64,000 nucleotides of DNA from an uncultured Chloroflexia bacterium. GTDB lineage: Bacteria > Chloroflexota > Limnocylindria > Limnocylindrales > CSP1-4. The stretch's first letter is position 1. Every line of letters starts with the position of its first letter. The stretch spans positions 374,075-438,074 of the forward strand of contig CAWHXD010000019.1 of assembly GCA_963833225.1 (NCBI GenBank). The letters run 5' to 3'. Positions 49,219-64,000 of this stretch are shown piece by piece. The translations under genes were made by a program, and so were the position numbers. Under the pieces are notes generated by a model, which was not told the DNA's origin, did no database searches, and saw only the letters and a list, made by a program, of their open reading frames with translations.

Positions 49219-50508
49219 ATGCCCGGCCACGAGGCCCGGGCTGTGACCCCGGCCACGGTCCGCCTCGCCTTTGGTCGAGATGGCCTCGAGATCGACGTGC
49301 CGGCCGGCGTGGACGTGCTCCTGCCACGGGCCCGGGTACCGCTCGCCGACCCTGGGGCGGCGCTCCGGGCGGCGCTGGCCGCGCCGGCGACGGCCCATCC
49401 GCTGCCGGAGCTGGCGCCGATCGGCAGCACCGTGGCGGTGAGCGTCTGTGACGTCACGCGTCCGTTTCCATCGCGGGTGGTCCTCCCGGTGCTCCTCGAT
49501 CAGCTCCCGGGCCGGCACGTGCGGCTGGTGATCGCCACCGGAAGTCATCGCGCGTGCACGGACCGGGAGCTCGAGGCGATGCTCGGACCCCGGGTTCTCG
49601 CCAGGTGCGAGGTGGTCCAGCATGATGCGGATGACCCTGCCGCCCATGTCACGCTGGGAACGGTGCCCGGCTCGGATGTGCCGGCCCGCGTCGATCGCCG
49701 GTTCATCGAGGCGGATGTCCGGGTCACGCTGGGATTCGTGGAGCCCCACTTCTTCGCGGGGTTCTCCGGCGGACCCAAGATGGTGGTTCCCGGCCTGGCC
49801 GGCATCGACACCATCCGCGAGCTGCATTCGGTGGCCCGGATCGCCAGCCCCCACGCGACGTGGGGCGTGCTCGACGGCAACCCGGTCCATGATCCGATCC
49901 GGGCGATTGCCGCCCGCGCCGGCGTGGACTTCGCGCTCGACGTCGCGCTCGACGAGGGGAACCGGATCTCCGCCGTCTTCTCGGGGTCGCTGGAGGCCGA
50001 GCACCGCGAGGCATGCGCCGACGTCCGCCAGACGGCAATGGTCGGCGTCGCGGAGCCGTACGACGTCGTCGTCACGACCAACAGCGGGTATCCGCTGGAC
50101 CAGAACCTCTACCAGTGCGTGAAGGGCCTCAAGGCCGCGGCGGGGATCGTGCGCGACGGTGGCACGATCATCCTGGCTGCGGCCTGCGAGGACGGGCTGC
50201 CAGCCCACGGCCGCTACGCGCACCTGCTGGCGAGCGCGCCCGGACCGGCCGAGTTCCTCGCGGCCCTCTCCCGAGGGGAGATCTCGGAGCGGGACCAGTG
50301 GCAGGTGCAGGTGCAGGCGGGGATCCAGGCGCGCGCTCGCGTCCTCGCCCACACGCCCGGCCTGGGCGCCGAGGATCTGCGGAGGGCGTGGCTTCAGGCG
50401 GCGGATGACGTGGCGGTCGCCCTGCGGGACGCCCTCGCGGTGGCCGGTCCGGGGGCGCGTGCGGCGATCCTGCCAGTCGGTCCCCAGACGATCGCGTATG
50501 TGACCTGA
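49219..50508 (+). CDS. LarA-family protein (nickel-pincer-nucleotide-dependent lactate racemase / 2-hydroxy-acid epimerase family, DUF2088)
   Basis: 429 aa. The family N-terminus (VRLAFGRDGLEIDVP...VAVSVCDVTRP...LVIATGSHRACT) is present. The start may be an internal GTG about 25 nt downstream. Confidence 0.75.
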   Translation: MPGHEARAVTPATVRLAFGRDGLEIDVPAGVDVLLPRARVPLADPGAALRAALAAPATAHPLPELAPIGSTVAVSVCDVTRPFPSRVVLPVLLDQLPGRHVRLVIATGSHRACTDRELEAMLGPRVLARCEVVQHDADDPAAHVTLGTVPGSDVPARVDRRFIEADVRVTLGFVEPHFFAGFSGGPKMVVPGLAGIDTIRELHSVARIASPHATWGVLDGNPVHDPIRAIAARAGVDFALDVALDEGNRISAVFSGSLEAEHREACADVRQTAMVGVAEPYDVVVTTNSGYPLDQNLYQCVKGLKAAAGIVRDGGTIILAAACEDGLPAHGRYAHLLASAPGPAEFLAALSRGEISERDQWQVQVQAGIQARARVLAHTPGLGAEDLRRAWLQAADDVAVALRDALAVAGPGARAAILPVGPQTIAYVT

Positions 50509-50576
50509 GCCCGTTCGTTTGACATGCCAACGTCCGCTGTCTACCGTGGACAAACGTTGTTTCAGAGGAGCCGACC

Positions 50577-51446
50577 TTGACCGTCATCGACGCCCACCAG
50601 CACTTCTGGAACCCGAGCCGCGTCGCCTATGACTGGCTGGGACCGGATCTGGGCCCGATCAACCGGGCCATCGAGTTTGCGGACCTGGAGCCGCTGCTTG
50701 CGGCCACGGGCGTGGAACGCACGGTCCTCGTCCAGTCGGCGGACAACGCAGCCGACACCGACTTCATGTTCGAGATCGCGGCCGCGCACCCCGAGATCGC
50801 GGCCGTGGTCGGCTGGGTCCCACTCGATGATCCGGTTGCCACGGCGGAGCGCCTCCCGGTGTTGCTCGCGAACCCGGTGTTCGCCGGGATCCGCAACCTG
50901 ATCCATACGCAGCCCGATCCCGACTGGCTGCTGAGGCCCGACGTGGATGAGTCCCTGGGCCTCCTCGCTGCCCGGGACGTGCCGTTCGACGTCGTATCGG
51001 TCCTGCCCCGGCACCTGGAGCACGTCCCGACCCTGTCCGAGCGACACCCCGAGCTCCGGATGGTCATCGACCATCTCTCCAAGCCGCCCATCAAGGCCGC
51101 GAGCGACGAGCCCTGGCGGTCCCTCATCGCTCGCGCGGCCGAGAACCCGCTCGTGTTCGCCAAGGTCTCGGGTCTGTACCCGTCCGTCGGCGACATGGCC
51201 GCCTGGACAGCGGACGACGTGCGGCCCTATCTGCACACGGCCCTCGAGCTGTTCGGCGCCAAGCGCCTCATGTTCGGTGGCGACTGGCCGATCTCGGTGC
51301 TGGCCGGTGGGTACGTGCGGGTGTGGGAGAACCTGAGCAGCCTGTTCGACGAGCTGTCGGCCGAAGACCGGGAAGCCATCCTGGGTGGGACCGCGGCGCA
51401 GTTCTATGGAATCCCGGCGGGCCGGCTCCCGGGAGGCGGCGCGTGA
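50577..51446 (+). CDS. Amidohydrolase-2-family sugar lactonase (L-fucono / L-rhamnono-lactonase-like)
   Basis: 289 aa. MTVIDAHQHFW...DWL is the Amidohydro_2 metal-site N-terminus and a conserved ...HL..P motif follows. Its TGA overlaps the next gene (GTGA). Confidence 0.75.
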   Translation: MTVIDAHQHFWNPSRVAYDWLGPDLGPINRAIEFADLEPLLAATGVERTVLVQSADNAADTDFMFEIAAAHPEIAAVVGWVPLDDPVATAERLPVLLANPVFAGIRNLIHTQPDPDWLLRPDVDESLGLLAARDVPFDVVSVLPRHLEHVPTLSERHPELRMVIDHLSKPPIKAASDEPWRSLIARAAENPLVFAKVSGLYPSVGDMAAWTADDVRPYLHTALELFGAKRLMFGGDWPISVLAGGYVRVWENLSSLFDELSAEDREAILGGTAAQFYGIPAGRLPGGGA

Positions 51447-52525
51447 TCACGCGGTTTGATCCCGTCGCCGAGGCCTGCCGGATCGAGGTCCCCGACGCCC
51501 ATCGACGGCCGATCGCCATCGTCGGCGCCGGCGCCATCGTGGACTTCGCGCACCTGCCGGCCTATCGCGCCGCCGGCCTCGAGGTTGCCGGGATCCACAA
51601 CCACCATCCCGCGCGGGCCGTCGACGTGGCCGGCCGTCACGGTGTGCCGCGGGTCTACGAGACGCTCGAGGACCTGCTTGGCGACGACCGGGTCGAGGTG
51701 GTGGACGTCGCCGTGTCCGCGGCCGCCCAGCCCGAGATCGTGCGCCGGGCGCTCGAATCGGGGCGCCACGTGCTAGCCCAGAAGCCGTTCGCACCGGATC
51801 CGGCCACCGGCCAGGCGCTGGTGGACCTCGCCGAGTCGCGCGGGCTGGTCCTGGTCGTGAACCAGCAGCTCCGCTTCGACGAGGGGATGGCCGCGGCCCA
51901 CCGGATGGTCGAGCTGGGCTGGATCGGCGACGTCACCGCGATGTCGATCACGGTCAACATCTGGACGGACTGGCATTCCTGGCCATGGATGCTCGAGACA
52001 CCCCGGCTGGAGGTGATGGTCCATTCGATCCACTATCACGACGTGATCCGCTGGTTCCTGGGCGAGCCGTCGCTCGTGTTCAGCGTCGGAGGCCGCACGC
52101 CGGGCCAGGCGCCCGTCGGGGAGACGCGGACCGTGACCACGTCCACCTATCCGTCCGGCGCGATCTCCGTGGTCCACGCCAACCACGAGAACGGCACCGG
52201 TGACAACCTCGCGACGTTCCGCATCGATGGCTCGCGGGGTGCGATCCGGGGCACCCTGGGCCTGCTCTACGACTACCCCAGCGGGCGGCCGGACACCCTG
52301 GAGATCAGCAGCGAGGTGCTGCCGACTGACGGCTGGGTCCCCTATCCGGTGGGCTCACGCTGGCTGCCCGACGCGTTCCTGGGGCCTATGGCGTCGCTGC
52401 TGCGGGCGGTCGCCACCGGGTCCACGCCCCGTTCCAGCGGCCGCGACAACGTGGGCACGCTGCGGCAGATCCAGCGGATCTACGAATCGATGGAGCGGGG
52501 AGCGGCGGTCCGGGTCGAGGGCTGA
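51443..52525 (+). CDS. Gfo/Idh/MocA-family NAD(P)-dependent oxidoreductase
   Basis: The GTG at 51443 follows GGGAGG. The 360-aa product has an N-terminal Rossmann domain (IAIVGAGAI...HVLAQKP). Confidence 0.8.
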   Translation: MITRFDPVAEACRIEVPDAHRRPIAIVGAGAIVDFAHLPAYRAAGLEVAGIHNHHPARAVDVAGRHGVPRVYETLEDLLGDDRVEVVDVAVSAAAQPEIVRRALESGRHVLAQKPFAPDPATGQALVDLAESRGLVLVVNQQLRFDEGMAAAHRMVELGWIGDVTAMSITVNIWTDWHSWPWMLETPRLEVMVHSIHYHDVIRWFLGEPSLVFSVGGRTPGQAPVGETRTVTTSTYPSGAISVVHANHENGTGDNLATFRIDGSRGAIRGTLGLLYDYPSGRPDTLEISSEVLPTDGWVPYPVGSRWLPDAFLGPMASLLRAVATGSTPRSSGRDNVGTLRQIQRIYESMERGAAVRVEG

Positions 52526-52536: not shown

Positions 52537-52998
52537 TCAGGCGGGTGCCGACCCGCGCTTCTCGACGACGTACAGGTGGACGAGGACGAGCACCACCTCG
52601 CCGGCCTGGTTGGTCACGGTCACCGTCTCCTCGACCATGCCCAGCGCCTCGGGTCGCCGGCGGTGGTCGGCCAGGCCCGTGATCTCGGCTCGCACCGTGA
52701 TCGTGTCACCGATGAACACGGGCCGCACGAACCGGACCCGATCGTAGCCGTAGCTCATCGCCCGGGGGTTGATGTCGCCCGCCGTCATGCCCACGGCCAT
52801 CGACATCACGAGCGTGCCATGTGCCATCCGGCGCTCGAAGGCCTGCGTGGCGCACCACTCGGCGTCCATGTGGTGGGGGAAGAAGTCGCCGGTCTGCCCG
52901 GCGTGCAGGACGATGTCGGCCTCGGTCACGGTCCGGCCCGTGGTCGTCCGGCTGGTGCCGGTGACGTAGTCCTCGAAGAACGCCTCAACCGTGTTCAT
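52537..52998 (-). CDS. MaoC-like (hotdog-fold) dehydratase
   Basis: 153 aa with an N-terminal hotdog block ([28 protein letters not shown]). Confidence 0.75.
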
Positions 52999-54143
52999 GT
53001 CGCGGTCTCCTCCTCCCGTGCCCGGGCGACCACCCGGTCGGCCGCCTCCAGGCAGGCCGCGTCGGTCAGCTCACCGCGCAGGGCCCGGTTGACCAGCCCG
53101 CCCACCTCGTCCTGGACCTGCAGCCAGCCATCGAACCGGGGCCGCACCCAGGCGCCGTCCAGCGTCCGCCGCGTGCCGCGGAAGAACCCCAGGCTGTCGG
53201 CGTCGACCGCCTCGTCGTCCCAGGCGTCGATGTTGGCCGGCTGGCCGCCGCTGGCGTAGTAGACGCCGCGCTGGACCTCGCCGCTCGCGAGCCAGAAGGC
53301 ATGGTCGACGGCAATCTCCGGCTGCGGCGAGAAGGCCGACACCGCGATCCCGGCGCCACCCAGGCAGGAGCCGGCGACGCCCCGGGGACCGGCGGGCATG
53401 TCCACGTAGGCGAGGCGGTGGGCACGGAACCCGGCACGGCTGTAGTTCGTATAGCCGAAGGCGAGCGGCGCGTAGCACCAGCGATCATCAGTGGCGAGGC
53501 GTTCCGCAGCCTGGATCGGGTTCTCGTCGAGGCATGCCGGATCGACCAGCTCCGCGAGGTGGTGCAGGTCCTCGAGGATGCCCTCGCCGTCCCCGCGGGC
53601 GATGAACCCGTCCCCGGCGATCGCGGCGCCGCGGTTTGCCGCGAGCGTCAGGAAGCTCGAGATGGCGTCCACCGGCTTGGCCGGCCAGACGACCCTGCCC
53701 GTGCGTGCGAGCTCGAGCACCTCGTCCCACGTCTTCGGCGGCACGGGCAGCAGATCGGGGCGATGGATGGCCACCTGGGCCGCGGCATCGATCGCGAGGC
53801 CGTACTGGTGACCGGCGTGCGCATAGGTCGCGTGTGACGGGCCGACGGCCTGCGTCGCGAGGGCCGCAAGCTCCACGTCACGACCGCACGTGTCGAGCGC
53901 GGCGAGGAGCCCGGCTGTCGCCGCGTGCGGGATGTGCGGATGGTCGATCACCATCAGGTCGTACGTCCGGGCGAGGGTCTCGAGCGGCTGGTCGGCGAAC
54001 CCCTGGAGCGATCGGGCCTCCCACTCCACCCGCACGCCGGGGTGGAGCGAGCTGTAGGCCTCCGCCGCCCCCCGCACGCTGTCCAGGCCGCGCGGATGGT
54101 CCCACGTCATGCCTCGGAGAACCGCCGGCAGCGGATCGCTCAT
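52995..54143 (-). CDS. Solute-binding-protein-like protein without a signal peptide (cytoplasmic SBP_bac_8-like); function unknown
   Basis: The internal ATG at 54143 overlaps the CoA-transferase stop. There is no hydrophobic N-terminus. Confidence 0.5.
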
Positions 54144-55360
54144 GCGCCCGCCGCGTCGTCGATGGGACGGAGGTCCAGCTCCGCGTCGATGGACGCCGTG
54201 TGCTCGCCCAGCCGCGGGGCGCCCCGGTCGCCGCCCAGCGTGCCGTGGTCGATCCGCAGCGGGCTCCGGGTCGTGTGCAGGGTCACCTCGCCGTCGCCCG
54301 TAGCCGAGGGCCGTCGCACCACCCGGTCCATCGCCAGGGCATGGAACCCCTCGTGGCCGACGAGATCGGGCAGCGTGAGCACGGGAGCGCACCACACGTC
54401 CGCCGGCTCCAGGATGTCGAGCCAGTCGCGGGTCGGGCGCGTGGACAGGTGGGCCGCCAGCAGGTCCTCGATCCGCTCCCGCTCCGTCCACCACGTCTCG
54501 GGGTCGCCGAATGCCGACAGGGCATCGAGCCCGATGAGCTCGCCGAGCCGCGGCACCGAGTTCATCGCGAGCGCGAGGTACCCGTCCGCGGTGGGGTAGA
54601 CGCCGTACGGGGCGGCGAGGAAGGCGTTGGCCCCGTGCGGTCCACCGCGGTCAACGAGCACCGACGGATCGTTCAGGTGGGCGCTGAGGAGCTCGAACTG
54701 GAGGTCGAGCATTCCCTCCATCAGGCTGGTCTCCACCAGGCCACCCTTGCCGGTGCGCTCACGGCGCAGGAGCAGCGCCGTGATGCCCTGCGCCAGGTGG
54801 ACCGAGGCGAGCAGGTCCGCGATCGACAGCCCGACCGGCACCGGCCCGTGGTCCCGGCTCCCGCTGAGCCACGGCAGGCCCGACATCGACTGCGCGAGCA
54901 GGTCCTGGCCGGGCAGGTCGCGCCACGGCCCATCGGGCCCGTAGCCGCTCACGCTCCCGTAGACCAGGCGCGGGTTGAGCGCCCGCGCGGATTCGAAGTC
55001 CAGCCCGATGCGCTCCATGACCCCCGGCCGGAAGTTCTGGATGAGCACGTCGGCGCGGGCCACGAGCCGGCGGATGGCCGCCAGGTCGGACGCGTTCTTG
55101 AGGTCGGCGGCGTAGCTCTCCTTGCCGCGGTTCATGATCTGGAACGAGAGGGTGTCGCCGTCGAGGAACTTGCCGGCGAAGGCGAGCGTGCGCCCGATGT
55201 CGCCGACCCCGGGACGCTCGATCTTGATCACCCGGGCCCCGAGATCGGACAGCCGCATCGCGGCGACGGGCCCGGCGAGGAACTGGCTGAAGTCGAGGAC
55301 CAGGATGCCGTCCAACGGCGGGATCGGCACCTTCCGGGCTCCCTCGCGTGCGGCACCCAT
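54140..55360 (-). CDS. Family III CoA-transferase (CaiB/BaiF family)
   Basis: The ATG at 55360 follows GGGAGGAG at spacing 5. LDGILVLDFSQFLAGPVAAMRLSDLGARVIKIE is the family signature. Confidence 0.8.
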   Translation of the reverse strand: MGAAREGARKVPIPPLDGILVLDFSQFLAGPVAAMRLSDLGARVIKIERPGVGDIGRTLAFAGKFLDGDTLSFQIMNRGKESYAADLKNASDLAAIRRLVARADVLIQNFRPGVMERIGLDFESARALNPRLVYGSVSGYGPDGPWRDLPGQDLLAQSMSGLPWLSGSRDHGPVPVGLSIADLLASVHLAQGITALLLRRERTGKGGLVETSLMEGMLDLQFELLSAHLNDPSVLVDRGGPHGANAFLAAPYGVYPTADGYLALAMNSVPRLGELIGLDALSAFGDPETWWTERERIEDLLAAHLSTRPTRDWLDILEPADVWCAPVLTLPDLVGHEGFHALAMDRVVRRPSATGDGEVTLHTTRSPLRIDHGTLGGDRGAPRLGEHTASIDAELDLRPIDDAAGA

Positions 55361-56937: not shown

Positions 56938-57611
56938 CGTTCCCAGACCTCGCGCAGGCTCGCACCCCCGAGGAGCTCCCCGAGGACCGACCGCTCGGCG
57001 GTTGCCCGGGCGGTGGCTCGCGCCAGGACCTCGGCCTCGACGGCGGCCGGCACCACGACCACGCCGTCATCGTCGGCAAGCACGAGGTCGCCGGGCGCGA
57101 CGAGCACACCGCCGCAGCGGACGGGTTCGCCGGTCGAGACCACGCGCATCCGCCCCCGGAAGTCGACCGGCCGTGAGCCGGGCGCGAAGACGTCAAACCC
57201 GACGGACCGGATCTTGGCCACGTCGCGGACCGGGCCGTCGCAGACCGCGCCAGCAGCCCCGTGGCCCTTGGCGGCCGCCGAGAACAGCTCGCCCCAGTAG
57301 GCCGTCCGCAGATCACCCCCGGTGGCGATCACGGCGAGCGAGCCGTTGTCGAGCCCGTCGATGAAGTCCATCACGGCATCGTACGGGTTGTCGGGGTTCG
57401 TCTCAGTCGGGGCGAACTGGACCGTCCGGGCGCGCCCAACGGCTCGAGCGCCCGTCACCAGGGGCGCGATGGCCGGGATCATGACCTGCGCCCGGACCCC
57501 GAGCGTGTCGAGCGAATCGGACACGATCGCCGACGTGAGCGCGGCCGCAAGCTGGGTGGGCAGATCCTCGAAGCGAGCCGCACGACCCTGGACATTCGTT
57601 TGCTCAGCCAT
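56922..57611 (-). CDS. RraA/DlpA-family protein (class II 4-hydroxy-2-oxo-acid aldolase-like)
   Basis: The ATG is at 57611. It is first in the minus-strand operon. Confidence 0.75.
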   Translation of the reverse strand: MAEQTNVQGRAARFEDLPTQLAAALTSAIVSDSLDTLGVRAQVMIPAIAPLVTGARAVGRARTVQFAPTETNPDNPYDAVMDFIDGLDNGSLAVIATGGDLRTAYWGELFSAAAKGHGAAGAVCDGPVRDVAKIRSVGFDVFAPGSRPVDFRGRMRVVSTGEPVRCGGVLVAPGDLVLADDDGVVVVPAAVEAEVLARATARATAERSVLGELLGGASLREVWERWHVL

Positions 57612-57821
57612 GCGGGGCAGTATAGCCACCCCGCTTCCGAGCGTACAGGGGGCAACTTCCGGCTGAAATGTATCGTTCGATATAGGAGCGTCGAGGGTGC
57701 TGTTTATCGTTACCAGATTGACATTTGCGGCCGCGAATGGTTACCCTGCCTTCGTTCCGGCGCTGTCCGTTCAGGTCGGTCGCCGGCGGTGGCAGGGACC
57801 ACACCTTTGGAGGAGCTATCT

Positions 57822-59216
57822 ATGCGCTCACTGTCCAGGCATTCCGGCCTGGCCCGTCTGGTCGCCGGCGGCACCGTCGCGGTGCTCCTGGTGTCCGCAT
57901 GCTCGGGCTCGTCGAGCACACCGGCGCCCGCATCGCAGGCGCCCGGCGCGTCCACGGCTCCCGCGACCCAGGCGCCCGCCGATGACAACGCCACTGACTC
58001 GGGCGGCCCCATCATGGTCTGGGTGGACGCCCCGCGCGTCCCCGCCGCCGAGGCGTTCCAGAAGGCCTACCCGGACATCCAGATCGAGATCAACGCGATC
58101 CCGGGCAACGTCGGCAGCACCGACCTGCAGCAGAAGTTCGCCCTGTTCAACCAGGCCGGCAGCGGCTGGCCGGACGCGATCTTCTTCCCGTCCAACGACG
58201 ACATCGCCTGGGCGACCAGCGCCAAGATCAACTACGCCCGCGACCTGAGCGGCCTGCTCGGGGACTACCTCACGGGCTACACCGAAGCCAACAACGCCCC
58301 GTGCAACATCGACGGCCAGGTCCGCTGCGCCCGCAACGACTCGGCACCCGACGTGTTCTGGTACAACAAGACGCTGTTCGACGAGTGGGGCTACACCCCG
58401 CCGACGACGTGGGAGGCGTACCAGGACCTCGGCATCAAGATCGCCACCGAGCATCCGGGCTACATCAGCGGCTTCCTCGGTGACGCCTACGCGCCGGACC
58501 GCTACCTGTGGGCCAGCGGCTGCCCGACCAACGACCGCCTGTCCGAGACCAAGGTCCACATCAACACCAGCGATCCGATGTGCACGCGGGTCGTGGACCT
58601 CGTCGACAAGATGGTCGCGGCCGGGGCCCTCAGCGCCGTCGGCATCTTCGACCCCAACGCCGCCGAGATCGGCCCCAAGCTCGCCATGAGCCCGGGCGCC
58701 GTGTGGTGGGGCAACTACCTGTTCCGCGACACCTGGAAGATCCCGGCCGGCCAGATGACCGCCACCAACCCGATCAACTGGACCGGCGAGACCCCCGGCT
58801 TCACCGGTGACGAGGGGGGCGGCCTGTGGGGCGTCTCCAGCCACATCAAGGGCAAGCAGCTCGATAACACGCTGACCTTCATCAAGTTCGTCACCAGCGA
58901 CCCGCGCTGGCAGGTCGATCTCTCGACCGGCCTTCCCGCCTACACGGCTCCCCAGCAGGCGTGGCTCGACAAGGGCGCGAAGGACGGCTACTTCGCCGAC
59001 TACCCGACGACTGCGGCGGCCATGGTCGAAGCCGGCAACCGCGTTCGCGGCAACCACTACTACATGCTCTACAACACCGGCGGCATCTGGAGCAAGACCG
59101 TGACGCCGGTCCTCACCGCGGGCCAGGACCTCAGCGCGGCCTGGGATGCCTTCGGCACCCAGCTCGTCAACGAGGCCAAGACCTTCGGGTACGAGGTCGT
59201 CGACACCGGGAACTGA
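57822..59216 (+). CDS. Carbohydrate ABC transporter substrate-binding lipoprotein (family 1)
   Basis: The ATG at 57822 follows GGAGGAG at spacing 6. The signal peptide and lipobox (VLLVSACSGS) are followed by a Thr/Pro/Ala linker and a binding-protein fold. Confidence 0.85.
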   Translation: MRSLSRHSGLARLVAGGTVAVLLVSACSGSSSTPAPASQAPGASTAPATQAPADDNATDSGGPIMVWVDAPRVPAAEAFQKAYPDIQIEINAIPGNVGSTDLQQKFALFNQAGSGWPDAIFFPSNDDIAWATSAKINYARDLSGLLGDYLTGYTEANNAPCNIDGQVRCARNDSAPDVFWYNKTLFDEWGYTPPTTWEAYQDLGIKIATEHPGYISGFLGDAYAPDRYLWASGCPTNDRLSETKVHINTSDPMCTRVVDLVDKMVAAGALSAVGIFDPNAAEIGPKLAMSPGAVWWGNYLFRDTWKIPAGQMTATNPINWTGETPGFTGDEGGGLWGVSSHIKGKQLDNTLTFIKFVTSDPRWQVDLSTGLPAYTAPQQAWLDKGAKDGYFADYPTTAAAMVEAGNRVRGNHYYMLYNTGGIWSKTVTPVLTAGQDLSAAWDAFGTQLVNEAKTFGYEVVDTGN

Positions 59217-59352: not shown

Positions 59353-60285
59353 ATGAGCAGTTCGTCCCCGGTCGGAGTGGCGGCCGCCCGTCGTCGATCC
59401 GGAATGCCTCGCCTGTCCCTGCCCGGCGCCGAGTCGCGTGGCGCCGCCATCCTGGTGCTCCCGTTCGTGGTGCTGCTGACGGTCGCGGGCATCGTCCCGA
59501 CCGTCTACGCGCTGCTCAAGAGCCTCGGCGACAGCAACGGCGAAGGCATTGGGTTCAGCAGCTTCGCGAAGATCATCGGGGACTTCCGGTTCGTCGACAC
59601 CTTCCTCAACATCGGGATCACGCTGATCGTCTGGCTGCCCCTGATGATGGTCGGTGTCGTGGCCCTCGCCCTGCTCGTGCACGCCAGCCCGGGCCGCTTC
59701 GGCTCCGTGATGCGGTTCGTGTACTACGTGCCGGGCGCGCTTGCCGGGATCGCGAACTTCATGCTCTGGCTGTTCATCCTGAATCCGGGCCAGAGCCCCG
59801 TCGACTTCCTGTGGAACGGGTTCGGGTACACGACCCTCAACCAGGTCGCCCAGCCCACCTACCTGCCAGTCATCCTGGCGGCGATGCTGTTCTTCCAGGG
59901 CGCCGGCACGTGGCTGGTGATCGTCAACGGCGGCCTCAACGGGATCCCCGACGAGGTCATCGAGGCGGCCGTCGTGGACGGGGCCGGATCGTGGGCGATG
60001 ACATGGCACATCATGCTGCCGATCATCCGGCCGTGGATCGGCTACATGCTCCTGCTCAACGTCGCGTACGGGTTCCAGCTGTTCATCGAGCCGCAGGTGC
60101 TGAGCCAGGTCACGCATGGGCAGATCTCGCCCCAATGGAGCCCGAACCAGCTCAGCTACACCTACGCGTACCAGATCCTCGACACGGGCGCGGCTGCCGC
60201 GATGTCGGTGATCCTGCTCGCCATCTCCCTCGGACTCGGCCTGGTGATCGTCTTCCGCACCGGCCTGTTCTCCGATGATCACTGA
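59353..60285 (+). CDS. Carbohydrate ABC transporter permease (MalF-like)
   Basis: 6 TM segments and the EAA-type loop (EAAVVDGAGSWAMTWHIMLP). Confidence 0.8.
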   Translation: MSSSSPVGVAAARRRSGMPRLSLPGAESRGAAILVLPFVVLLTVAGIVPTVYALLKSLGDSNGEGIGFSSFAKIIGDFRFVDTFLNIGITLIVWLPLMMVGVVALALLVHASPGRFGSVMRFVYYVPGALAGIANFMLWLFILNPGQSPVDFLWNGFGYTTLNQVAQPTYLPVILAAMLFFQGAGTWLVIVNGGLNGIPDEVIEAAVVDGAGSWAMTWHIMLPIIRPWIGYMLLLNVAYGFQLFIEPQVLSQVTHGQISPQWSPNQLSYTYAYQILDTGAAAAMSVILLAISLGLGLVIVFRTGLFSDDH

Positions 60286-60296
60286 GGAGGCGGAGC

Positions 60297-61223
60297 GTGA
60301 GCAGTAGAACGTCCGACACCCATCGCCGCCACGCTGGCGCCCACTGGACCCTCAGCCGGGCCGGCCGCGTCGGCGCGCTGGCGGTCGCGGCCCTGATCTT
60401 CGGCATCCCGATCCTGACCTTCGTGCTGATGGGCTTCCGCCAGCAGGACCCCGTCGGCCAGGTGCCCGGCGGCATCTTCTCGCTGGGCGGGCTGTCCCTC
60501 GAGAACGCCGCCAACAGCCTGCGCGTCGTGATGGACTTCAACCACGGCATCTTCGCCAAGTGGATGGCGAACTCGCTGATCGTGGGCATCGGCGGCACCG
60601 CCCTGGCCGTGCTCACCGCCATGCCGGCCGGCTATGCCCTGGCCATGCTCCGGTTCCGAGGCCGGCGCCAGCTGCGCTTCATCACCCTGCTGACCATGGT
60701 GATGCCCAACACCGTGCTCGTGATCCCGTTGTTCCTCGAGGTCAGCGCCGTCGGCGCCATCGGCCAGCTGTGGCCCGTCATCGTGATCATGGGCTTCTAC
60801 CCGTTCGGCGTGTACCTCGCCTACATCCACTACCTCACGACGCTGCCACGCGAGCTGGTGGAGGCCGCCCGGCTCGATGGCCTCAACGAGGTCATGGTTT
60901 TCCTGCGGATCGCGGTGCCCATCTCGAAGCAGGCCGTCGCCCTGGTGATCTTCTTCAGCTTCGTGGCCAACTGGACCAACTACTTCCTGCCCCTGGTGCT
61001 GCTGCCGCTGTCGGAGCAGGGGACGGTCTCGCTCGGCCTGCAGCAGCTGGTCGGGTCGAGTCCGCTGTTCGACCCGACGATGTCCGCGGGCCTGAGCGTC
61101 AAGCTCTACATGCCGCAGCTGGCTCTCGCCACGACCATTACCATCGTGCCCGTCCTGGCCGTGTTCATCATGGCCCAGCGGTTCCTGTCGCGGGGAGCCG
61201 TCGTCGGGGCCGTCAAGGGCTGA
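60297..61223 (+). CDS. Carbohydrate ABC transporter permease (MalG-like)
   Basis: The GTG at 60297 follows GAGGAGG. The EAA loop (EAARLDGLNEVMVFLRIAVP) is present. Confidence 0.8.
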   Translation: MSSRTSDTHRRHAGAHWTLSRAGRVGALAVAALIFGIPILTFVLMGFRQQDPVGQVPGGIFSLGGLSLENAANSLRVVMDFNHGIFAKWMANSLIVGIGGTALAVLTAMPAGYALAMLRFRGRRQLRFITLLTMVMPNTVLVIPLFLEVSAVGAIGQLWPVIVIMGFYPFGVYLAYIHYLTTLPRELVEAARLDGLNEVMVFLRIAVPISKQAVALVIFFSFVANWTNYFLPLVLLPLSEQGTVSLGLQQLVGSSPLFDPTMSAGLSVKLYMPQLALATTITIVPVLAVFIMAQRFLSRGAVVGAVKG

Positions 61224-61287
61224 GCGCGTCGCACCGGGGAGCCACCGTCGCCAGATGACAACGACGCCGCGCCGACCTGCCTCGAGG

Positions 61288-62355
61288 ATGAGGCCACGGA
61301 TCACGCTGGCCGACGTGGCCCGCAGGGCCGGCGTGTCCGTCTCGGTCGTCTCGCGGGAGCTCAACGGGGATCCGGCGCTGCGGGCCCGCAGCGAGACGCG
61401 ACGGCGGATCCACGGGGCCGCCAAGGCGCTGGGCTACACCCCCAGCCATGCGGCGCGCGCCCTCCGCCTGTCAAAGGCGTTCGCGATCGCGCTCGTCGTT
61501 CCGGACCTCACGAACCCCGTCTACAGCCAGCTGATCCGGGGGATCGAGGATGCCGCGGACGAGCTTGGCTACCAGGTGCTCATGGGCCGCACCGAGCGGA
61601 TCGAGCCCGGCACGGACTTCATCCGGCGGCTGGTAGGTGAGGGCCGCGTCGACGGCTTCCTCGTCCAGCGCCGCGACGAGACCGACCCCCAGGAGTTCGC
61701 GCACCTGATCGACGGCACGGCGCCCGTGGTGCTGATCAACTCCCGCGGCTCGCGGCGCGGCTCGGTGGTGCTCGACGATGCCGCCGGGGCGCGAAGGGCG
61801 ACCCAGCACCTGCTGGACCTTGGTCACCGGGATATCGCCCTGATCGGTGGGGACATCCACAGCCACACCGGGCGAGCACGCGAGCGGGGCTACGTCCAGG
61901 CGATCAACGCTGCGCGCATGCGCCGCCGGTCGGCCTGGGTGCTGCACTCCGGCTATACGCCCGAAGCCGGCCGCCTCGCCATCCGTGAGCTGTGCGTGAC
62001 CAATGGCCGGCGGCCGACCGGCGTCGTGGTGTCCAACGTGAACGCCGCCATGGGTGTCCTGCTCGGGGCGCGGGAGGTCGGGCTCAAGGTCCCGGAGCAG
62101 CTGTCGGTCGTGGCGATCCACGATTCCTGGTTCACCGAGTACGCGTCGCCGTCGCTGACCACCGTCCGGATGCCGATGTACGAGATGGGGCGCGAGGCGG
62201 TCACGCTGCTCCACCTTCGCCTCGAGGGCGAACGACCGGTCGACGTGATGATCGAGGCCCCGGCGCCCGAGCTCGTCCACCGCCAGTCCACGGCACCGCC
62301 CCCGAAGCGGCTGGCCCGGGCGCGCGAGCCCATCCCCGGACCCGAGCGTGGCTGA
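61288..62355 (+). CDS. LacI-family transcriptional regulator
   Basis: The probable ATG is at 61288 (MRPRITLADVARRAGVSVSVVSREL). A periplasmic-binding-protein-like effector domain follows. Confidence 0.8.
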   Translation: MRPRITLADVARRAGVSVSVVSRELNGDPALRARSETRRRIHGAAKALGYTPSHAARALRLSKAFAIALVVPDLTNPVYSQLIRGIEDAADELGYQVLMGRTERIEPGTDFIRRLVGEGRVDGFLVQRRDETDPQEFAHLIDGTAPVVLINSRGSRRGSVVLDDAAGARRATQHLLDLGHRDIALIGGDIHSHTGRARERGYVQAINAARMRRRSAWVLHSGYTPEAGRLAIRELCVTNGRRPTGVVVSNVNAAMGVLLGAREVGLKVPEQLSVVAIHDSWFTEYASPSLTTVRMPMYEMGREAVTLLHLRLEGERPVDVMIEAPAPELVHRQSTAPPPKRLARAREPIPGPERG

Positions 62356-62361: not shown

Positions 62362-63387
62362 CTAGGCCTCGAGGCCCTGCTCCTCCGGCACCAGCCGGCC
62401 CTCGTCCCGCATCCGCGTGAACAGCTCGATCGTCTCCGCGATCCCGTCGCCGATGGGCGTGACGGGGACGGGGCCGATCGCGGCCAGCGCATCGTCGGCG
62501 ATCTCCTCAGGGAACGGGAGTGGCGCCCCCTCGACGGTGATCCTGGCGCCGGCTCCGGGGATCCGGGCGTCGATCTCGCTGACGAAGTCCCGCAGGTCCA
62601 CCAGGCTGCCGCCCAGGTTGAACGCGTGCGCTCCGCGCAGCGGGCTCCGGCTCGCGATGATCAGCGTCCGCGCGACGTCGTGCGCGTACTGGAACAGGGT
62701 CCGCCCGGAGAAGCCGATGGTGGCTGGCCTCCCCAGCACGGCGGCGACGATCGCCTTGGTCGGCGAGCTGGTCAGCCCCTGGTCGCGGCCGGGGCCGTAG
62801 ACCGTCATCGGCCGAAGCCCGATGCTCGAGACCCCGTTTTCCAGCCAGTACACGCGCGCGGTGCCCTCGTTGGCCTGCTTGTACACGCCGTAGTGGTTGA
62901 CGGGGTGGGCGGTCGCGTCGTTCTCGAGGCGCATCGTCCCGGGATCCGCATCGGCCGCATCGAACATGCCGACCGAGCCCGTGTAGACGACCTGTCCGAT
63001 CCGGTCCGCGCGTCGGCTGGCCGCGTCGAAGATGTTCACCGTCCCCAGCACGTTGACCCGGGCACCGAGCGGCGGATCCGCCCGGCAGAACGGGACCTGC
63101 AGGGCGGCGAGGTGGATGATGTTGGTGATGCCGTGGTCGTCGAGCCCCTGCTCGACGGACGCGAGATCGGTGATGTCGCCCCGCACCATGGTCAGCCGGG
63201 CGAGCTCCTCCTCGGTGCAGATCTGGCGGATCCGGCGCGGGTTCGCGGCGAGGTCGAAGGCGACGACCTCGGTCCCCTCGCGGAGGAGGTTCCGGACGGT
63301 CCACGCGCCGATGCAGCCCATGGCGCCGGTGACCAGGAACCGCTCCGCCGGGCGCCGTGGCGTGGTGGGGCGAGGGTCGTCGTGCAT
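62362..63387 (-). CDS. NAD-dependent epimerase/dehydratase (extended SDR)
   Basis: FLVTGAMGCIGAWTVRNL is a Rossmann motif. YGVYK is the catalytic Y-x3-K. Confidence 0.75.
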   Translation of the reverse strand: MHDDPRPTTPRRPAERFLVTGAMGCIGAWTVRNLLREGTEVVAFDLAANPRRIRQICTEEELARLTMVRGDITDLASVEQGLDDHGITNIIHLAALQVPFCRADPPLGARVNVLGTVNIFDAASRRADRIGQVVYTGSVGMFDAADADPGTMRLENDATAHPVNHYGVYKQANEGTARVYWLENGVSSIGLRPMTVYGPGRDQGLTSSPTKAIVAAVLGRPATIGFSGRTLFQYAHDVARTLIIASRSPLRGAHAFNLGGSLVDLRDFVSEIDARIPGAGARITVEGAPLPFPEEIADDALAAIGPVPVTPIGDGIAETIELFTRMRDEGRLVPEEQGLEA

Positions 63388-63391
63388 CGCG

Positions 63392-64000
63392 TCAGGCCTC
63401 CCTGGCCGGACCGGTCCGGCACGTGTTGGTGAGCGTTCCGATCCCCTCGACGACGACCTCGACGACATCGCCGTCGCCCAGCAGCCGGGGCGGCCGCCGG
63501 AAGATGCCGACGCCCCCGGGGGTACCGGTGGCGATCACGTCGCCGGACTCAAGGGTGAAGGCGCGCGAGCAGTGGCTGATGAGCTCCCGCACCCCGAAGA
63601 ACATGGACGACGTGCGGTCGTGCTGGAGTCGCTCGCCGTTGACCAGGCAGGCGATCTCCAGGTCCCCGGGATCGGGAAGCTCGTCCGCGGTGACCAGCAC
63701 GGGGCCCATCGGGCAGAACGTGTCGAGCGACTTGCCGCGCACCCACTGCCCGTCACCAAACTGGATGTCCCGGGCCGAGACGTCGTTGAGGCAGGTGTAG
63801 CCGAGGACGTGGTCGAGCGCATCGTCCGGGCTGACGGACCGGGCCCGGCGGCCGATCACGACCGCCAGCTCCGCCTCGTAGTCAACCTGGCTGGTCAGCT
63901 CCGGATCCCAGCGGATCTCGTCACCGGGACCGATCACCGAGCTCGGGAACTTGGCGAACACCAGCGGGGACGGCGGGGGAACGGCCCCATCCTCCGCCGC
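63392..64000 (-). CDS. Fumarylacetoacetate-hydrolase (FAH)-family protein, C-terminal part; the gene continues beyond the window end
   Basis: ORF 63392..63961 has DYEAELAVVIG, GYTCLNDVSARD and GTPGGVG, which are FAH-fold motifs. Confidence 0.7.
   Translation of the reverse strand, partial: AAEDGAVPPPSPLVFAKFPSSVIGPGDEIRWDPELTSQVDYEAELAVVIGRRARSVSPDDALDHVLGYTCLNDVSARDIQFGDGQWVRGKSLDTFCPMGPVLVTADELPDPGDLEIACLVNGERLQHDRTSSMFFGVRELISHCSRAFTLESGDVIATGTPGGVGIFRRPPRLLGDGDVVEVVVEGIGTLTNTCRTGPAREA

Follow-up and report, generated by a model that had tools for sequence, protein, structure and literature searches.

Most of the island described here belongs to an already known pathway, ending in pyruvate and lactate, and what remains new is a CoA-dependent gene module set on this known backbone. 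We lean towards reading the region as a single regulon whose products take up an L-fucose/L-rhamnose-type sugar and oxidise it by a non-phosphorylative route, with LacI control probable. Gene content, operon structure, conservation, co-occurrence and family assignments in the window (the whole stretch of 64,000 nucleotides analysed) were established directly; all substrates and all reactions of the proposed pathway we infer.

Given that the G+C content of the window DNA is about 70%, genes were chosen by third-position GC (GC3), and their products were compared with the Pfam and NCBIfam models. All of the domains named in the original prediction were recovered in this way, in the order and on the strands stated there. 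None of the island proteins reached an NCBIfam equivalog cut-off; hence each specific activity given below is that of a candidate. The comparative genomics set consisted of 164 related loci. As predicted, the minus strand carries an operon, made up of six genes (52537-57611) in the transcription order RraA-like, SAF, UxaA large part, CoA_transf_3, SBP_bac_8-like and MaoC. Neighbouring genes in this run overlap or are separated by gaps of about 40 bases at most, and the run contains no site resembling a terminator or promoter, so the six were assigned to one operon.

On the plus strand, a CUT1 ABC importer is encoded by a lipoprotein SBP gene (57822..59216; Pfam SBP_bac_1, with the lipobox LLVSAC read from the sequence) and two permease genes (59353..60285 and 60297..61223; Pfam BPD_transp_1 in both), while no ABC ATPase gene was found in the island. 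The lipoprotein SBP gene is syntenic in L001-L005, L012 and L085, as is, in relatives, the adjoining plus-strand gene for a LacI-family repressor (61255..62355; Pfam LacI and Peripla_BP_3). This repressor is a candidate binder of an operator-like motif, which is found as TGGTATATCGATTTTT at 49016..49031, in the divergent promoter region of a methyltransferase operon and the LarA gene, and as TGTTTATCGTTACCA, together with the near-palindrome TATCGTTCGATA, at 57671..57716, in the divergent promoter region between the RraA-like and SBP genes. The pattern G[GA]TA(ACGAT|TATCG) has only two matches in the 64 kb window, both in the island's divergent promoter regions. Furthermore, the motif is present at orthologous sites in eight related loci: L001, L085, L086 and L089 have it at the position orthologous to that of TGGTATATCGATTTTT; L001, L002, L003, L004, L085 and L086 have it in the stretch separating the SBP gene from RraA; and L012 has it upstream of RraA. 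This common motif links the island with the corrinoid operon upstream of it. The original prediction had the island begin at 49219, a boundary that we no longer keep, since the divergent operon at 45307-48921 has the promoter region and the conserved operator-like motif in common with it.

The original proposal, that the island oxidises a sugar of the L-6-deoxyhexose type by a non-phosphorylative route, is supported by its lactonase, its FAH-family hydrolase and the orthologous clusters. The Amidohydro_2 (cog3618-type) sugar lactonase (50577..51446, plus strand; Pfam E 2e-50) is nearest to L-fucono-1,5-lactonase in both NCBIfam (190 bits against a cut-off of 400) and the PDB (4DLF, E 1e-34). 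The FAH-family hydrolase (63392..64000, minus strand; Pfam FAA_hydrolase E 3e-70), whose 5′ end lies past the window edge, is in its truncated form nearest to an L-rhamnose-route enzyme, 2,4-didehydro-3-deoxy-L-rhamnonate hydrolase (179 bits against a cut-off of 500). The orthologous clusters hold RhaM mutarotases, aldo-keto reductases (AKR), SDRs, FAH, FucP-like permeases and L-lactate-oxidising genes, and one includes a GH78 rhamnosidase; in relatives, LutABC, an FMN-dependent dehydrogenase (L-lactate dehydrogenase family) and PPDK adjoin the cluster, and L007 carries the complete co-directional operon LacI-FAH-SDR-AKR-lactonase-RraA-SAF-UxaA-RhaM. The sugar class would be L-fucose/L-rhamnose-type; L-fucose, L-rhamnose, L-galactose and D-arabinose are indistinguishable by sequence. 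FucU/FucI and a rhamnose cluster lie just upstream of the island in the same window.

Next to the FAH gene, an extended SDR oxidoreductase of the NAD epimerase/dehydratase family (62362..63387, minus strand; Pfam Epimerase E 2e-33) is a candidate 2-keto-3-deoxy-acid 4-dehydrogenase. The FAH-SDR pair is kept in L002, L005 and L085; counting against this reading, however, characterised L-KDF dehydrogenases are classical SDRs. The primary sugar dehydrogenase is probably an aldo-keto reductase just past the window edge, judging from relatives.

The dehydratase, formerly thought atypical, is of a type that has been published. It is split into a large subunit of the UxaA/GarD family (55401..56615, minus strand; Pfam GD_AH_second and GD_AH_C) and a SAF-domain small subunit (56620..56937, minus strand; Pfam SAF), the latter aligning with the N-terminus of the NCBIfam galactarate dehydratase model. 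The large subunit matches GarD (PDB 6U7L, E 3e-42) and has 80 orthologues in many phyla (56-88% identity) with invariant Cys25, 49, 78, 145 and 320; SAF lies directly upstream of it in 69 of the 80 loci. UxaA/GarD-type dehydratases in L-fucose/L-rhamnose-type routes were described in 2019 by Watanabe's group, whose paper named a heteromeric L-fuconate dehydratase on the basis of gene context and unpublished data, and the fucose locus of Campylobacter jejuni also encodes a UxaA-type dehydratase. The island's SAF-UxaA pair corresponds to this heteromeric type.

The minus-strand operon opens with the gene for an RraA-like protein (56922..57611; Pfam RraA-like E 6e-34), which has an invariant R135-D136 and PDB matches to the uncharacterised 3K4I and the HMG/CHA aldolase 3NOJ. 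Of 80 loci, 29-31 have it beside SAF-UxaA, and of 84 loci, 43 have it beside the CoA module; it is a candidate metal-dependent 4-hydroxy-2-oxoacid aldolase. We know of no demonstration that an RraA-like protein cleaves a 2-keto-3-deoxy sugar acid, and a literature search found no paper combining RraA, fuconate and aldolase.

In the proposed pathway, the sugar would enter through the CUT1 importer, its anomers would be interconverted by a RhaM-type mutarotase, and an aldose 1-dehydrogenase, either the Gfo/Idh/MocA enzyme or the aldo-keto reductase beyond the window edge, would oxidise it. The lactone would be opened by the Amidohydro_2 lactonase and the acid converted by the heteromeric SAF-UxaA dehydratase into a 2-keto-3-deoxy acid, from which the extended SDR, as 4-dehydrogenase, and the FAH hydrolase would yield pyruvate and L-lactate; alternatively, the RraA-like metal aldolase would yield pyruvate and L-lactaldehyde. 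L- and D-lactate would then be interconverted by a LarA-type racemase.

LarA (49219..50508, plus strand; Pfam Lar_N and LarA_C) belongs to the lactate-racemase group of nickel-pincer 2-hydroxyacid racemases. It scores 431.5 bits with NCBIfam Ni_dep_LarA (cut-off 460), and in the PDB it is closest to the broad-spectrum LarA 9EID, a lactate/short-chain 2-hydroxyacid racemase (257 bits). Its sequence contains GSHR, EPH, GGPK, NPVH and YQCVKG segments, presumed to hold the catalytic residues. The window showed no larBCE genes. Given that enzymes of the lactate-racemase group racemise lactate and glycerate, the L-lactate released at the end of the route explains the presence of LarA, previously placed outside any described route.

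The original prediction overlooked that the CoA-transferase, an SBP-fold protein, MaoC and Gfo, often with the RraA-like protein, appear to form one recurrent conserved module. The family III (CaiB/BaiF) CoA-transferase (54140..55360, minus strand; Pfam CoA_transf_3 E 4e-96) falls far under the cut-off of all NCBIfam equivalogs, the best being succinate-glutarate, oxalate and mesaconate transferases; its best PDB matches are uncharacterised entries, YfdE and SUGCT. For the "SBP-like" gene (52995..54143, minus strand; Pfam SBP_bac_8/SBP_bac_1), the domain call was correct, but the protein has no signal peptide and is hence cytoplasmic. It adopts a CUT1 sugar-binding-protein fold (AlphaFold pLDDT 95.9; TM about 0.8 to MalE and SmoF at 15-20% identity), and its roughly 45 invariant residues, including H17, R19, D68-H69-P70-H71, R129, K157, R237, R241 and R335, form an enzyme-like conservation pattern; we infer that it is a partner of the CoA-transferase. 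The MaoC-like (R)-specific hydratase/dehydratase (52537..52998, minus strand; Pfam MaoC_dehydratas E 3e-22) matches PDB 4FFU (164 bits), shares 55% identity with the "dehydratase" of a Sinorhizobium meliloti cluster, and contains GDFFPHH, which fits an intact hydratase-2 Asp...His motif. The Gfo/Idh/MocA oxidoreductase (51443..52525, plus strand; Pfam), a candidate aldose 1-dehydrogenase that also belongs to the module, shares 35% identity with the Gfo gene of the S. meliloti fucose-type cluster. Its identity to the Gfo half of an SBP-Gfo fusion, in which a different SBP-like domain is joined to an orthologue of the window's Gfo, is 46%.

Among 84 loci found via the SBP-fold protein, MaoC is present in 62, the CoA-transferase in 55 (and in all 20 loci that have long flanks), RraA in 43, the lactonase in 42, RhaM in 36 and UxaA in only 5; Gfo co-occurs with the CoA-transferase, SBP-fold and MaoC genes in 39. 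Fucose-type clusters of Actinomycetota, Chloroflexota and Alphaproteobacteria contain the module, some together with the UxaA dehydratase and some without it. Carriers include Kribbella, Nocardioides, Subtercola, Streptomyces, Nitratireductor and S. meliloti, whose pSymB cluster also has an annotated L-fuconate dehydratase. In the literature, we found no described role in sugar breakdown for this CoA-dependent gene set or for the B12 methyltransferase set.

The CoA-dependent branch suggested earlier is thus real and conserved across loci, but nothing points to lactyl-CoA. MaoC enzymes act on 3-hydroxyacyl, not 2-hydroxyacyl, thioesters. Our best guess, of low confidence and modelled on the CaiB/CaiD logic of carnitine metabolism, is that a hydroxy-acid derived from the sugar is activated and then loses water at the beta position. 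The CoA-transferase would load CoA onto a 3-hydroxy acid that comes from the sugar, either the aldonate itself or something derived from it, and that the SBP-fold partner recognises or presents; MaoC would strip the beta-hydroxyl from the thioester, and the CoA would then pass to the next substrate molecule. If true, this would provide a second way to a 2-keto-3-deoxy or unsaturated acid for sugars that the metal dehydratase rejects. However, a 2,3-dihydroxyacyl-CoA dehydrated in this way would become a 2-oxoacyl-CoA, which is unusual and reactive. The module may also be two units with separate roles, since its parts occur apart: MaoC stands beside UxaA or Gfo with no adjacent CoA-transferase in L003, L004 and S. 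meliloti, and the CoA-transferase/SBP-fold pair is found with crotonase and TRAP transporters outside sugar clusters.

The upstream operon (45307-48921, minus strand), divergent from LarA and overlooked before, encodes two proteins of the URO-D/MtaA fold, a corrinoid protein and a mutarotase, and is possibly an O-methyl-sugar demethylase. Its last gene encodes RhaM, an L-rhamnose-mutarotase-family protein (45307..45651; Pfam rhaM E 2e-29) with homologues inside the orthologous clusters. The URO-D/MtaA-family protein (45712..46902; Pfam URO-D 68 bits, weak NCBIfam MtaA/CmuA matches), with 87-95% identity in L001, L085, L086 and L089, is a candidate methylcorrinoid methyltransferase. The corrinoid (B12-binding) protein (46907..47536; Pfam B12-binding E 1.4e-28 and B12-binding_2 E 3.7e-19; GC3 of the frame 0.9-0.98) carries the motif GDLHDIG (DxHxxG), read from the sequence, and is conserved in L001, L003, L004, L085, L086 and L089. 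The remaining protein (47599..48921) has no Pfam or NCBIfam match; its AlphaFold model (pLDDT 92.3) is a URO-D/MtaA-like TIM barrel that Foldseek matches to uroporphyrinogen decarboxylases and the Methanosarcina mazei methyltransferase 4AY7, making it a candidate substrate:corrinoid methyltransferase. In L003, its homologue lies in one operon with an ABC transporter, the lactonase and Gfo.

Since the G+C content of the window, about 70%, fills a plain list of open reading frames with shadow frames, genes were chosen by third-position GC and then scanned against Pfam and NCBIfam. These scans recovered every domain named in the original prediction, in the order that it gave. On the plus strand, a LarA-like gene (49219-50508) opens an operon that continues with an Amidohydro_2 gene (50577-51446) and a Gfo/Idh/MocA oxidoreductase gene (51443-52525), the latter two overlapping by 4 bases. 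The minus-strand operon encodes an RraA-like protein (56922-57611), SAF (56620-56937), the large part of UxaA (55401-56615), a family III CoA-transferase (54140-55360), an SBP_bac_8-like protein with the fold of a solute-binding protein (52995-54143; hereafter the SBP-fold protein) and MaoC (52537-52998), and its genes overlap or lie no more than about 40 bases apart. A lipoprotein solute-binding protein (SBP), two permeases and a LacI regulator are encoded on the plus strand (57822-62355), and an extended SDR and an FAH-family hydrolase on the minus strand (62362-64000), with the FAH gene cut by the end of the window. Promoter and terminator scans, themselves at chance level, gave no terminator-like site inside the minus-strand operon, and no riboswitch or other Rfam family was found in 41-64 kb. 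Because no protein of the island reaches an NCBIfam equivalog threshold, we infer all substrate assignments from gene context and family membership.

With the large subunit of UxaA as the anchor, 80 genomic loci were retrieved (identity 56-88%), of which those from Chloroflexia metagenome-assembled genomes are the closest. The SAF gene lies upstream of the large subunit in 69 of the 80, and the neighbours include a classical SDR (31 loci), RraA-like (29-31), Amidohydro_2 (26-27), FAH (15-16), an aldo-keto reductase (AKR; 15) and a FucP-like permease (9). A Nostocoides locus (L007) holds a full operon on one strand, in the order LacI-FAH-SDR-AKR-lactonase-RraA-SAF-UxaA-RhaM. The dehydratase of the island is a split SAF+UxaA/GarD enzyme with invariant cysteines, a type already named for L-fuconate (PMC6336799). 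A UxaA/GarD-type D-arabinonate dehydratase that is also active on L-fuconate was characterised by Watanabe et al. 2019 (PMC6336799), and the heteromeric L-fuconate dehydratase of Paraburkholderia mimosarum was named from gene context and unpublished data (PMC6336799). A dehydratase of this type is also encoded in the fucose locus of C. jejuni, where a mutarotase, an amidohydrolase and an SDR accompany it (PMC6946681). The view in the original prediction that a UxaA enzyme, rather than an enolase- or IlvD-type one, is an atypical component therefore falls away, since such dehydratases have been published for these routes (PMC6336799, PMC6946681) and the one found here is not new.

The other heteromeric member of the family is SuyAB (PMC6336799), and the split pair shares its two-gene architecture; that the pair is itself a sulfolactate sulfo-lyase is nevertheless scarcely credible. 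Sixty orthologues of the large subunit all retain Cys25, 49, 78, 145 and 320, which argues against SuyAB, from which the family's conserved cysteines are reported to be absent (PMC6336799); moreover, sulfite exporter and sulfonate genes are missing from a context that is one of sugar catabolism. This candidate was rejected on both grounds. We give very little credence to the canonical role of UxaA, which would make this a hexuronate/altronate or aldarate island, a scenario that the original prediction had itself raised. UxaA/GarD is the archetype of the dehydratase family, and one actinobacterial group pairs SAF+UxaA with a mannitol-dehydrogenase-like enzyme, KDG kinase and Eda, but the window is without UxaB/UxaC, KdgK and Eda, and its neighbours are a lactonase, FAH, RhaM, Gfo/Idh/MocA and a sugar ABC importer with LacI, as in the closest syntenic relatives. 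The canonical role was hence rejected for the window on context, although it may hold for a different orthologue group among actinobacteria. In that group (L017, L018, L041, L042, L047 and L050-L055, from Actinomycetota), the SAF+UxaA orthologues, at 62-67% identity, have a Zn-dependent alcohol dehydrogenase, the mannitol-dehydrogenase-like enzyme, KDG kinase and Eda aldolase as neighbours, along with a GntR regulator and an ABC importer of the ribose type. These neighbours suggest that members of this dehydratase family also serve a sugar-acid route of the phosphorylative kind, so that the family is not limited to one substrate.

The remaining backbone enzymes were assigned with differing precision. 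The Amidohydro_2 lactonase gives a full-length Pfam match, and its best PDB match is 4DLF, an L-fucono-1,5-lactonase; the best NCBIfam model has the same name, and the score of 190 against a cut-off of 400 places the protein in the family only. Within the window, the candidate aldose 1-dehydrogenase is the Gfo/Idh/MocA protein, which is without an equivalog match and has an orthologue in a fucose-type cluster of Sinorhizobium meliloti. An AKR gene precedes FAH-SDR in one related locus (L005) and SDR in another (L001), and a dehydrogenase of this classical fucose type is probably encoded just past position 64000. FAH carries an FAA_hydrolase domain and comes closest to the model of the rhamnose-route hydrolase, scoring 179 bits (cut-off 500) for a protein that is cut by the window end. 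The neighbour of FAH is an extended SDR of the epimerase family only, whereas the characterised 4-dehydrogenases are classical SDRs; the SDR-FAH pair is conserved.

The RraA-like protein has the family fold with its catalytic Arg-Asp pair (Pfam E 6e-34), and R135-D136 is invariant in 22 orthologues. It shares this fold and invariant pair with the HMG/CHA aldolase (LigK/ProA), an RraA-like class II pyruvate aldolase, and would by analogy cleave a 4-hydroxy-2-oxo acid to pyruvate. However, it is not a LigK/ProA orthologue (89 bits against 304 for the ligK_PcmE model), and its best PDB structure, 3K4I, is of an uncharacterised protein. A literature search on RraA with fuconate returned nothing relevant. 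In NCBIfam NF009399 (PRK12764), of 501 residues, FAH and RraA-like domains are joined in one protein, and the FAH and the RraA-like protein of the window each match this model, a hint that the two activities work together.

Two published routes are close to this backbone. The UxaA/GarD-type L-fucose/D-arabinose route (Herbaspirillum huttiense C785_RS13685; P. mimosarum A19U_RS0100650/655; C. jejuni Cj0483) shares a UxaA-family acid-sugar dehydratase, in two subunits in P. mimosarum, and likewise has an Amidohydro_2 lactonase, FAH hydrolase, SDR and mutarotase adjoining, with pyruvate and lactate or glycolate as products. In comparison, the window adds the RraA-like protein, CoA-transferase, SBP-fold protein, MaoC and LarA, and its 4-dehydrogenase candidate is an extended SDR. 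The L-rhamnose route of Sphingomonas through LRA5 and LRA6 (the 4-dehydrogenase of L-KDR, the 2-keto-3-deoxy acid of that route, and the L-2,4-diketo-3-deoxyrhamnonate hydrolase) leads to the same end products, and its hydrolase is the best NCBIfam match of the window FAH. That match is far below the cut-off, however, and, going by the reference lists consulted, the dehydratase of that route is enolase-type and the dehydrogenase a classical SDR. The pathway class put forward in the original prediction, a non-phosphorylative route of L-fucose/L-rhamnose type, is thus retained on the lactonase and FAH matches and on gene context, while two of the parts that it had set apart as atypical have ordinary explanations.

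The second of these parts is LarA. On the equivalog model of that name it reaches 431.5 bits, short of the cut-off of 460 but far more than on the malate- and hexonate-specific models. Since its scores on all other LarA-homologue models are far lower, it belongs to the lactate-racemase (LAR) group. The segments GSHR, EPH, GGPK, NPVH and YQCVKG align with LarA structures, and we take them to comprise the catalytic His pair, the cofactor-tethering Lys, the Ni-binding His and the Tyr-Gln-x-x-Lys substrate motif. The closest structure is that of a broad-spectrum racemase of lactate and short-chain 2-hydroxyacids. Lactate, glycerate and 2-hydroxybutyrate are all racemised by enzymes of the lactate-racemase group (PMC11770544). 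As the hydrolase branch would release L-lactate, the presence here of a candidate lactate racemase is readily understood; this end product and the group assignment together account for a component that had seemed out of place. The window protein matches LarA and its LAR-group homologues over its full length, but it differs in its setting, a sugar-oxidation operon, which PMC11770544 does not mention, and in that no larB, larC or larE gene for cofactor synthesis was seen in the 64 kb window. Among the compared loci, LarA accompanies the island only in the window and in four relatives (L001, L085, L086 and L089), and is hence a lineage-specific addition.

What is new in the island lies in a recurrent module of CoA-transferase, SBP-fold protein, MaoC and Gfo/Idh/MocA, with or without RraA, and, in this lineage, in a corrinoid system. 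The CoA-transferase is nearest to dicarboxylate and oxalate transferases in NCBIfam and PDB, with no model reaching its cut-off. MaoC carries the segment GDFFPHH, which presumably represents the Asp...His motif of hydratase-2. The SBP-fold protein does not qualify as a periplasmic CUT1 substrate-binding protein: it has no signal sequence, nor do its homologues of about 380 residues, so that it is cytoplasmic, and it is linked to the CoA-transferase and not to ABC permeases. Its structural model (pLDDT 95.9) has the CUT1 sugar-binding fold, with TM scores of about 0.8 to MalE and SmoF at only 15-20% identity. About 45 residues are invariant in the family, many of them His, Asp and Arg, as in the segments W-x-H-x-R and D-H-P-H; judging from the alignment, this invariance probably exceeds what a transporter binding protein would keep. 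The family is large, its members of about 380 residues being annotated as transporter parts: one search gave 3,273 matches and a second 3,836 proteins, two sets that probably overlap.

Retrieval by the SBP-fold protein yielded 84 loci, many of them short, in which MaoC (62), CoA-transferase (55), RraA-like (43), Amidohydro_2 (42), Gfo/Idh/MocA (39), RhaM (36), an enolase-type dehydratase (31) and FAH (14) are found alongside, and UxaA in only 5. When at least 5 kb is available on both sides, the CoA-transferase is there in 20 of 20 loci. One typical order is SBP-perm-perm-enolase-FAH-AKR-enolase-RhaM-RraA-SBPfold-MaoC-lactonase-CoAT-MaoC2-Gfo-LacI (perm, permease; CoAT, CoA-transferase), and a second is SBP-perm-perm-AKR-esterase-SBPfold-MaoC-RraA-lactonase-RhaM-CoAT-MaoC2-Gfo-SDR; flanking such loci are FAH, an FMN-dependent dehydrogenase of the L-lactate dehydrogenase/glycolate oxidase family and pyruvate phosphate dikinase. 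Most carriers belong to Microbacteriaceae, Nakamurella, Kribbella and Nocardioides. In Kribbella the order is CoAT-LacI-SBP-perm-perm-Gfo-CoAT-SBPfold-MaoC-Amidohydro_2, and in Nocardioides the same gene set is interleaved with FAH, SDR, AKR, an enolase-type dehydratase and LutABC. In Subtercola the module stands beside AKR, enolase, lactonase, KDG kinase and Eda; in Streptomyces, GH42-LacI-CoAT-SBPfold-MaoC is followed by an SBP-like-Gfo fusion, and 80 metagenomic loci give the same picture as these four genera. A GH78 rhamnosidase is present in one module locus, and in some loci MaoC stands beside UxaA or Gfo/Idh/MocA without the CoA-transferase. In the fusion of Streptomyces sp. B6B3 (L083, 10760-13231), which is 823 residues long, the Gfo part is orthologous to the window Gfo/Idh/MocA at 46% identity, and the SBP-like part is not BLAST-similar to the CoA-linked SBP-fold family.

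A search of plasmids found the SBP-fold family on 148 replicons, 90 of them from Sinorhizobium. The order in Nitratireductor is GntR-CoAT-SBPfold / amidohydrolase-IclR / SBP-perm-perm-UgpC-MR/MLE-RhaM-Gfo-MaoC-SDR, and its CoA-transferase is 54% identical to that of the window. On S. meliloti pSymB, a cluster of this type, running amidohydrolase-IclR / SBP-perm-perm-UgpC-MR/MLE-RhaM-Gfo-MaoC-SDR, continues with FAH and a gene annotated as L-fuconate dehydratase, while the CoAT-SBPfold pair lies about 10 kb upstream. Because the cluster adjoins the NasS/NasT homologues SMb21114/21115, we identify it as SMb21101-21113, which we take to be the L-fucose cluster of the RB-TnSeq/GapMind work. It shares with the window the CUT1 importer, RhaM (54% identity), MaoC (55%), FAH (47%) and Gfo/Idh/MocA (35%); it differs in having enolase-type dehydratases instead of SAF+UxaA and IclR instead of LacI, and is without RraA-like, LarA and corrinoid genes. 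In strain 1021 (L169, 10869-12004), the CoA-transferase upstream of the SBP-fold gene aligns as two pieces in different frames; it lies near conjugal-transfer genes and is possibly a frameshift or a pseudogene. Literature searches found no paper that says what the MaoC, Gfo-partner or CoAT/SBP-fold genes do, and nothing relevant on CoA-transferase and MaoC with fucose or on the S. meliloti locus tags.

The enzymes themselves could also recall an itaconate-, mesaconate- or glutarate-type organic-acid cassette that merely happens to stand beside sugar genes, given that the nearest relatives of the transferase act on dicarboxylates, that MaoC resembles itaconyl- and mesaconyl-CoA hydratases and that a variant with crotonase and TRAP transporters exists. 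This is unlikely, because the cassette is interleaved with sugar genes, namely RhaM, lactonase and Gfo/Idh/MocA, in dozens of loci from three phyla; in the window its genes are set among those of the sugar pathway, with stop codons overlapping start codons, the third of its proteins adopts a sugar-binding fold, and CitE- or HpcH-type lyases are absent beside it. The variant itself, in four metagenome contigs (L137, L143, L149 and L151), comprises IclR, CoA-transferase, crotonase, two tandem SBP-fold genes and TRAP transporter genes, with a second CoA-transferase beside a ThDP enzyme of the oxalyl-CoA decarboxylase/2-hydroxyacyl-CoA lyase type; a Microbulbifer plasmid (L172) has one SBP-fold gene with CoA-transferase, crotonase, TRAP transporters and a LacI regulator.

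A family III CoA-transferase is encoded together with a thioester (de)hydratase, which is MaoC or, in the one variant, crotonase. The logic may be likened to that of CaiB/CaiD and of Ict/Ich/Ccl in itaconate metabolism, where, as is generally known, a family III transferase acts with a (de)hydratase and CoA is recycled between substrate and product. The window hydratase is nevertheless MaoC-type and not a crotonase like CaiD, no lyase is present, and the partner with a sugar-binding fold has no counterpart in those systems. The smallest clusters hold an importer, Gfo/Idh/MocA, lactonase, transferase, SBP-fold protein and MaoC, and are without a metal dehydratase. In their simplest reading, the sugar would be oxidised to the aldonate, a CoA thioester would be made from the aldonate, the beta-hydroxyl would be removed by MaoC, as in the carnitine system, and the resulting 4-hydroxy-2-oxo acid would be cleaved by the RraA-like protein. 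The weak point of such an aldonate-CoA route is that a 2-oxoacyl-CoA would be formed.

The original prediction gave lactyl-CoA or a 2-hydroxy acid as examples for its CoA-dependent side branch. In such a version, the transferase and MaoC would convert the lactate, or another 2-hydroxy acid, of the pathway through lactyl-CoA, and LarA would supply the right enantiomer. L-lactate is indeed the expected end product, LarA is present, 2-hydroxyacid transferases are generally known within family III, and lactate-oxidising genes adjoin the module in other loci. We consider this version decidedly improbable all the same. MaoC-type hydratases are generally known to act on 3-hydroxyacyl or 2-enoyl thioesters, and the known dehydration of lactyl-CoA to need radical [4Fe-4S] enzymes; LarA occurs with the module only in the window and its four close relatives; lactate is already handled by LutABC or by the FMN-dependent enzyme of the L-lactate dehydrogenase family beside the module; and the smallest clusters, with their Gfo/Idh/MocA, lactonase and ABC sugar importer, have no lactate-producing enzymes. 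The branch stands as a real module that recurs across loci, whereas the lactyl-CoA chemistry fits MaoC less well than the aldonate-CoA route and leaves the smallest clusters unexplained.

We turn, tentatively and with somewhat less than even confidence, to a broader reading: the CoA-transferase, its SBP-fold partner, MaoC and Gfo/Idh/MocA, with the RraA-like protein in many lineages, may constitute an undescribed CoA-dependent branch of deoxy-sugar or sugar-acid catabolism, in which a transporter-type binding protein has been recruited to the cytoplasm, either to form part of an enzyme or to present the substrate, and which is in this lineage coupled to the corrinoid-dependent demethylation of O-methyl sugars.

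The corrinoid part of this reading comes from an operon on the minus strand, divergent from LarA, by which the island extends beyond the bounds given in the original prediction. It encodes a protein of no assigned family with a URO-D/MtaA-like fold (47599-48921), a corrinoid protein (46907-47536) with B12-binding and B12-binding_2 domains and a DxHxxG motif (GDLHDIG), a URO-D/MtaA-family protein (45712-46902) and a RhaM mutarotase (45307-45651); the corrinoid gene is hidden within a longer spurious reading frame. The evidence for methyltransferases consists of one weak URO-D/MtaA sequence match and of one match by fold only, with TM scores of about 0.5-0.6. The arrangement, a DxHxxG corrinoid protein flanked by two URO-D/MtaA-fold proteins, resembles that of the three-component systems MtaABC and the aryl-methyl-ether O-demethylases, with the differences that the genome is probably one of Chloroflexota, that the operon belongs there to a sugar regulon and that it has no activase. 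The set is conserved in L001, L085, L086 and L089, and in a further relative (L003) it is merged into the ABC-lactonase-Gfo operon; distant members of the 47599-48921 family sit among glycoside hydrolases. From these gene contents, corrinoid-dependent O-methyl-sugar demethylation is a reasonable candidate role for the operon. The mlp methyltransferase clusters were considered as a parallel and rejected, as they concern methyl-sulfur/selenium metabolism and their context does not match.

An operator-like motif (TGGTAACGATAA / TGGTATATCG) is found at 49016-49031 and 57671-57716, only in the two divergent promoter regions of the window, and the second of these also holds the near-palindrome TATCGTTCGATA (57671-57682). 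The pattern G[GA]TA(ACGAT|TATCG) has two matches in the 64 kb, at 49018 and 57714, one in each region, and recurs at orthologous sites in eight related loci (L001, L002, L003, L004, L012, L085, L086 and L089) against a background of 55 matches in 2.25 Mb of loci. The short form TATCGWT by itself is not in excess over chance in the window (3 matches, 2.7 expected), so that its weight lies in position and in conservation among relatives.

Overlapping with the main reading of a fucose/rhamnose-type island, and compatible with it, is the proposal that in this lineage the true substrate carries an O-methyl group. The sugar would be a methylated deoxyhexose (2-O-methyl-fucose or 3-O-methyl-rhamnose, for example), which the upstream corrinoid system would demethylate, and the 'extra' enzymes would serve this modified sugar. 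The operon with the two URO-D/MtaA-fold proteins, the corrinoid protein and RhaM shares its promoter region and operator motif with LarA, the arrangement is kept in the four relatives and joined to the ABC/lactonase/Gfo operon in L003, and the URO-D-fold family is found among glycoside hydrolases in other genomes. Against this, our literature search found no precedent for corrinoid-dependent demethylation of sugars, no gene for a reductive activase or methyl acceptor was seen, genomes that have no corrinoid system commonly carry the CoA module all the same, and distant homologues have no corrinoid protein nearby. We regard the proposal as doubtful, though with an appreciable chance of being right.

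Deoxy-sugars rank among the main building blocks of polysaccharides from plants, algae and microbes, and, to our knowledge, the oxidative routes for fucose and rhamnose have been held to be fully mapped. Nevertheless, a five-gene module without an assigned step lies inside fucose/rhamnose clusters of soil Actinomycetota, Chloroflexota and rhizobia, including the genetically tractable S. meliloti. Its function could add a CoA-dependent step to sugar-acid metabolism, give a role to a large family of 'solute-binding proteins' mis-annotated as transporter parts, and improve pathway prediction for deoxy-sugars. If the corrinoid system demethylates sugars, it would be a new way of using methylated sugars.

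Several other features of the window were noted. The oxidative island is abutted by a group at 41745-45216 that encodes LacI, a FucU-like mutarotase and a genuine L-fucose isomerase, which scores 1039 bits where the cut-off is 775; no obvious fuculokinase or fuculose-phosphate aldolase gene stands beside them. The enzymes encoded in a phosphorylative L-rhamnose-type cluster at 24029-38364 are a class II aldolase-like protein, a xylose-isomerase-like TIM barrel, an FGGY kinase, a second RhaM and a fusion of class II aldolase with SDR (RhaEW-like), alongside which are a SorC-type regulator and pieces of a ribose-type ABC importer; several reading frames between 29.8 and 35 kb appear short or broken. 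Adjoining the sugar regulator is a 2-oxoacid dehydrogenase (20323-24369) with a fused E1 alpha/beta of 890 aa and an E2 that has E3-binding and catalytic domains and no match to a lipoyl domain. Genes for two multihaem cytochrome c proteins, for an NrfD-type membrane protein and for a 4Fe-4S protein follow one another at 8904-12628, an arrangement that recalls modules of the alternative complex III type. Finally, two paralogous transporters of the CitMHS family lie end to end on opposite strands at 1916-4486.
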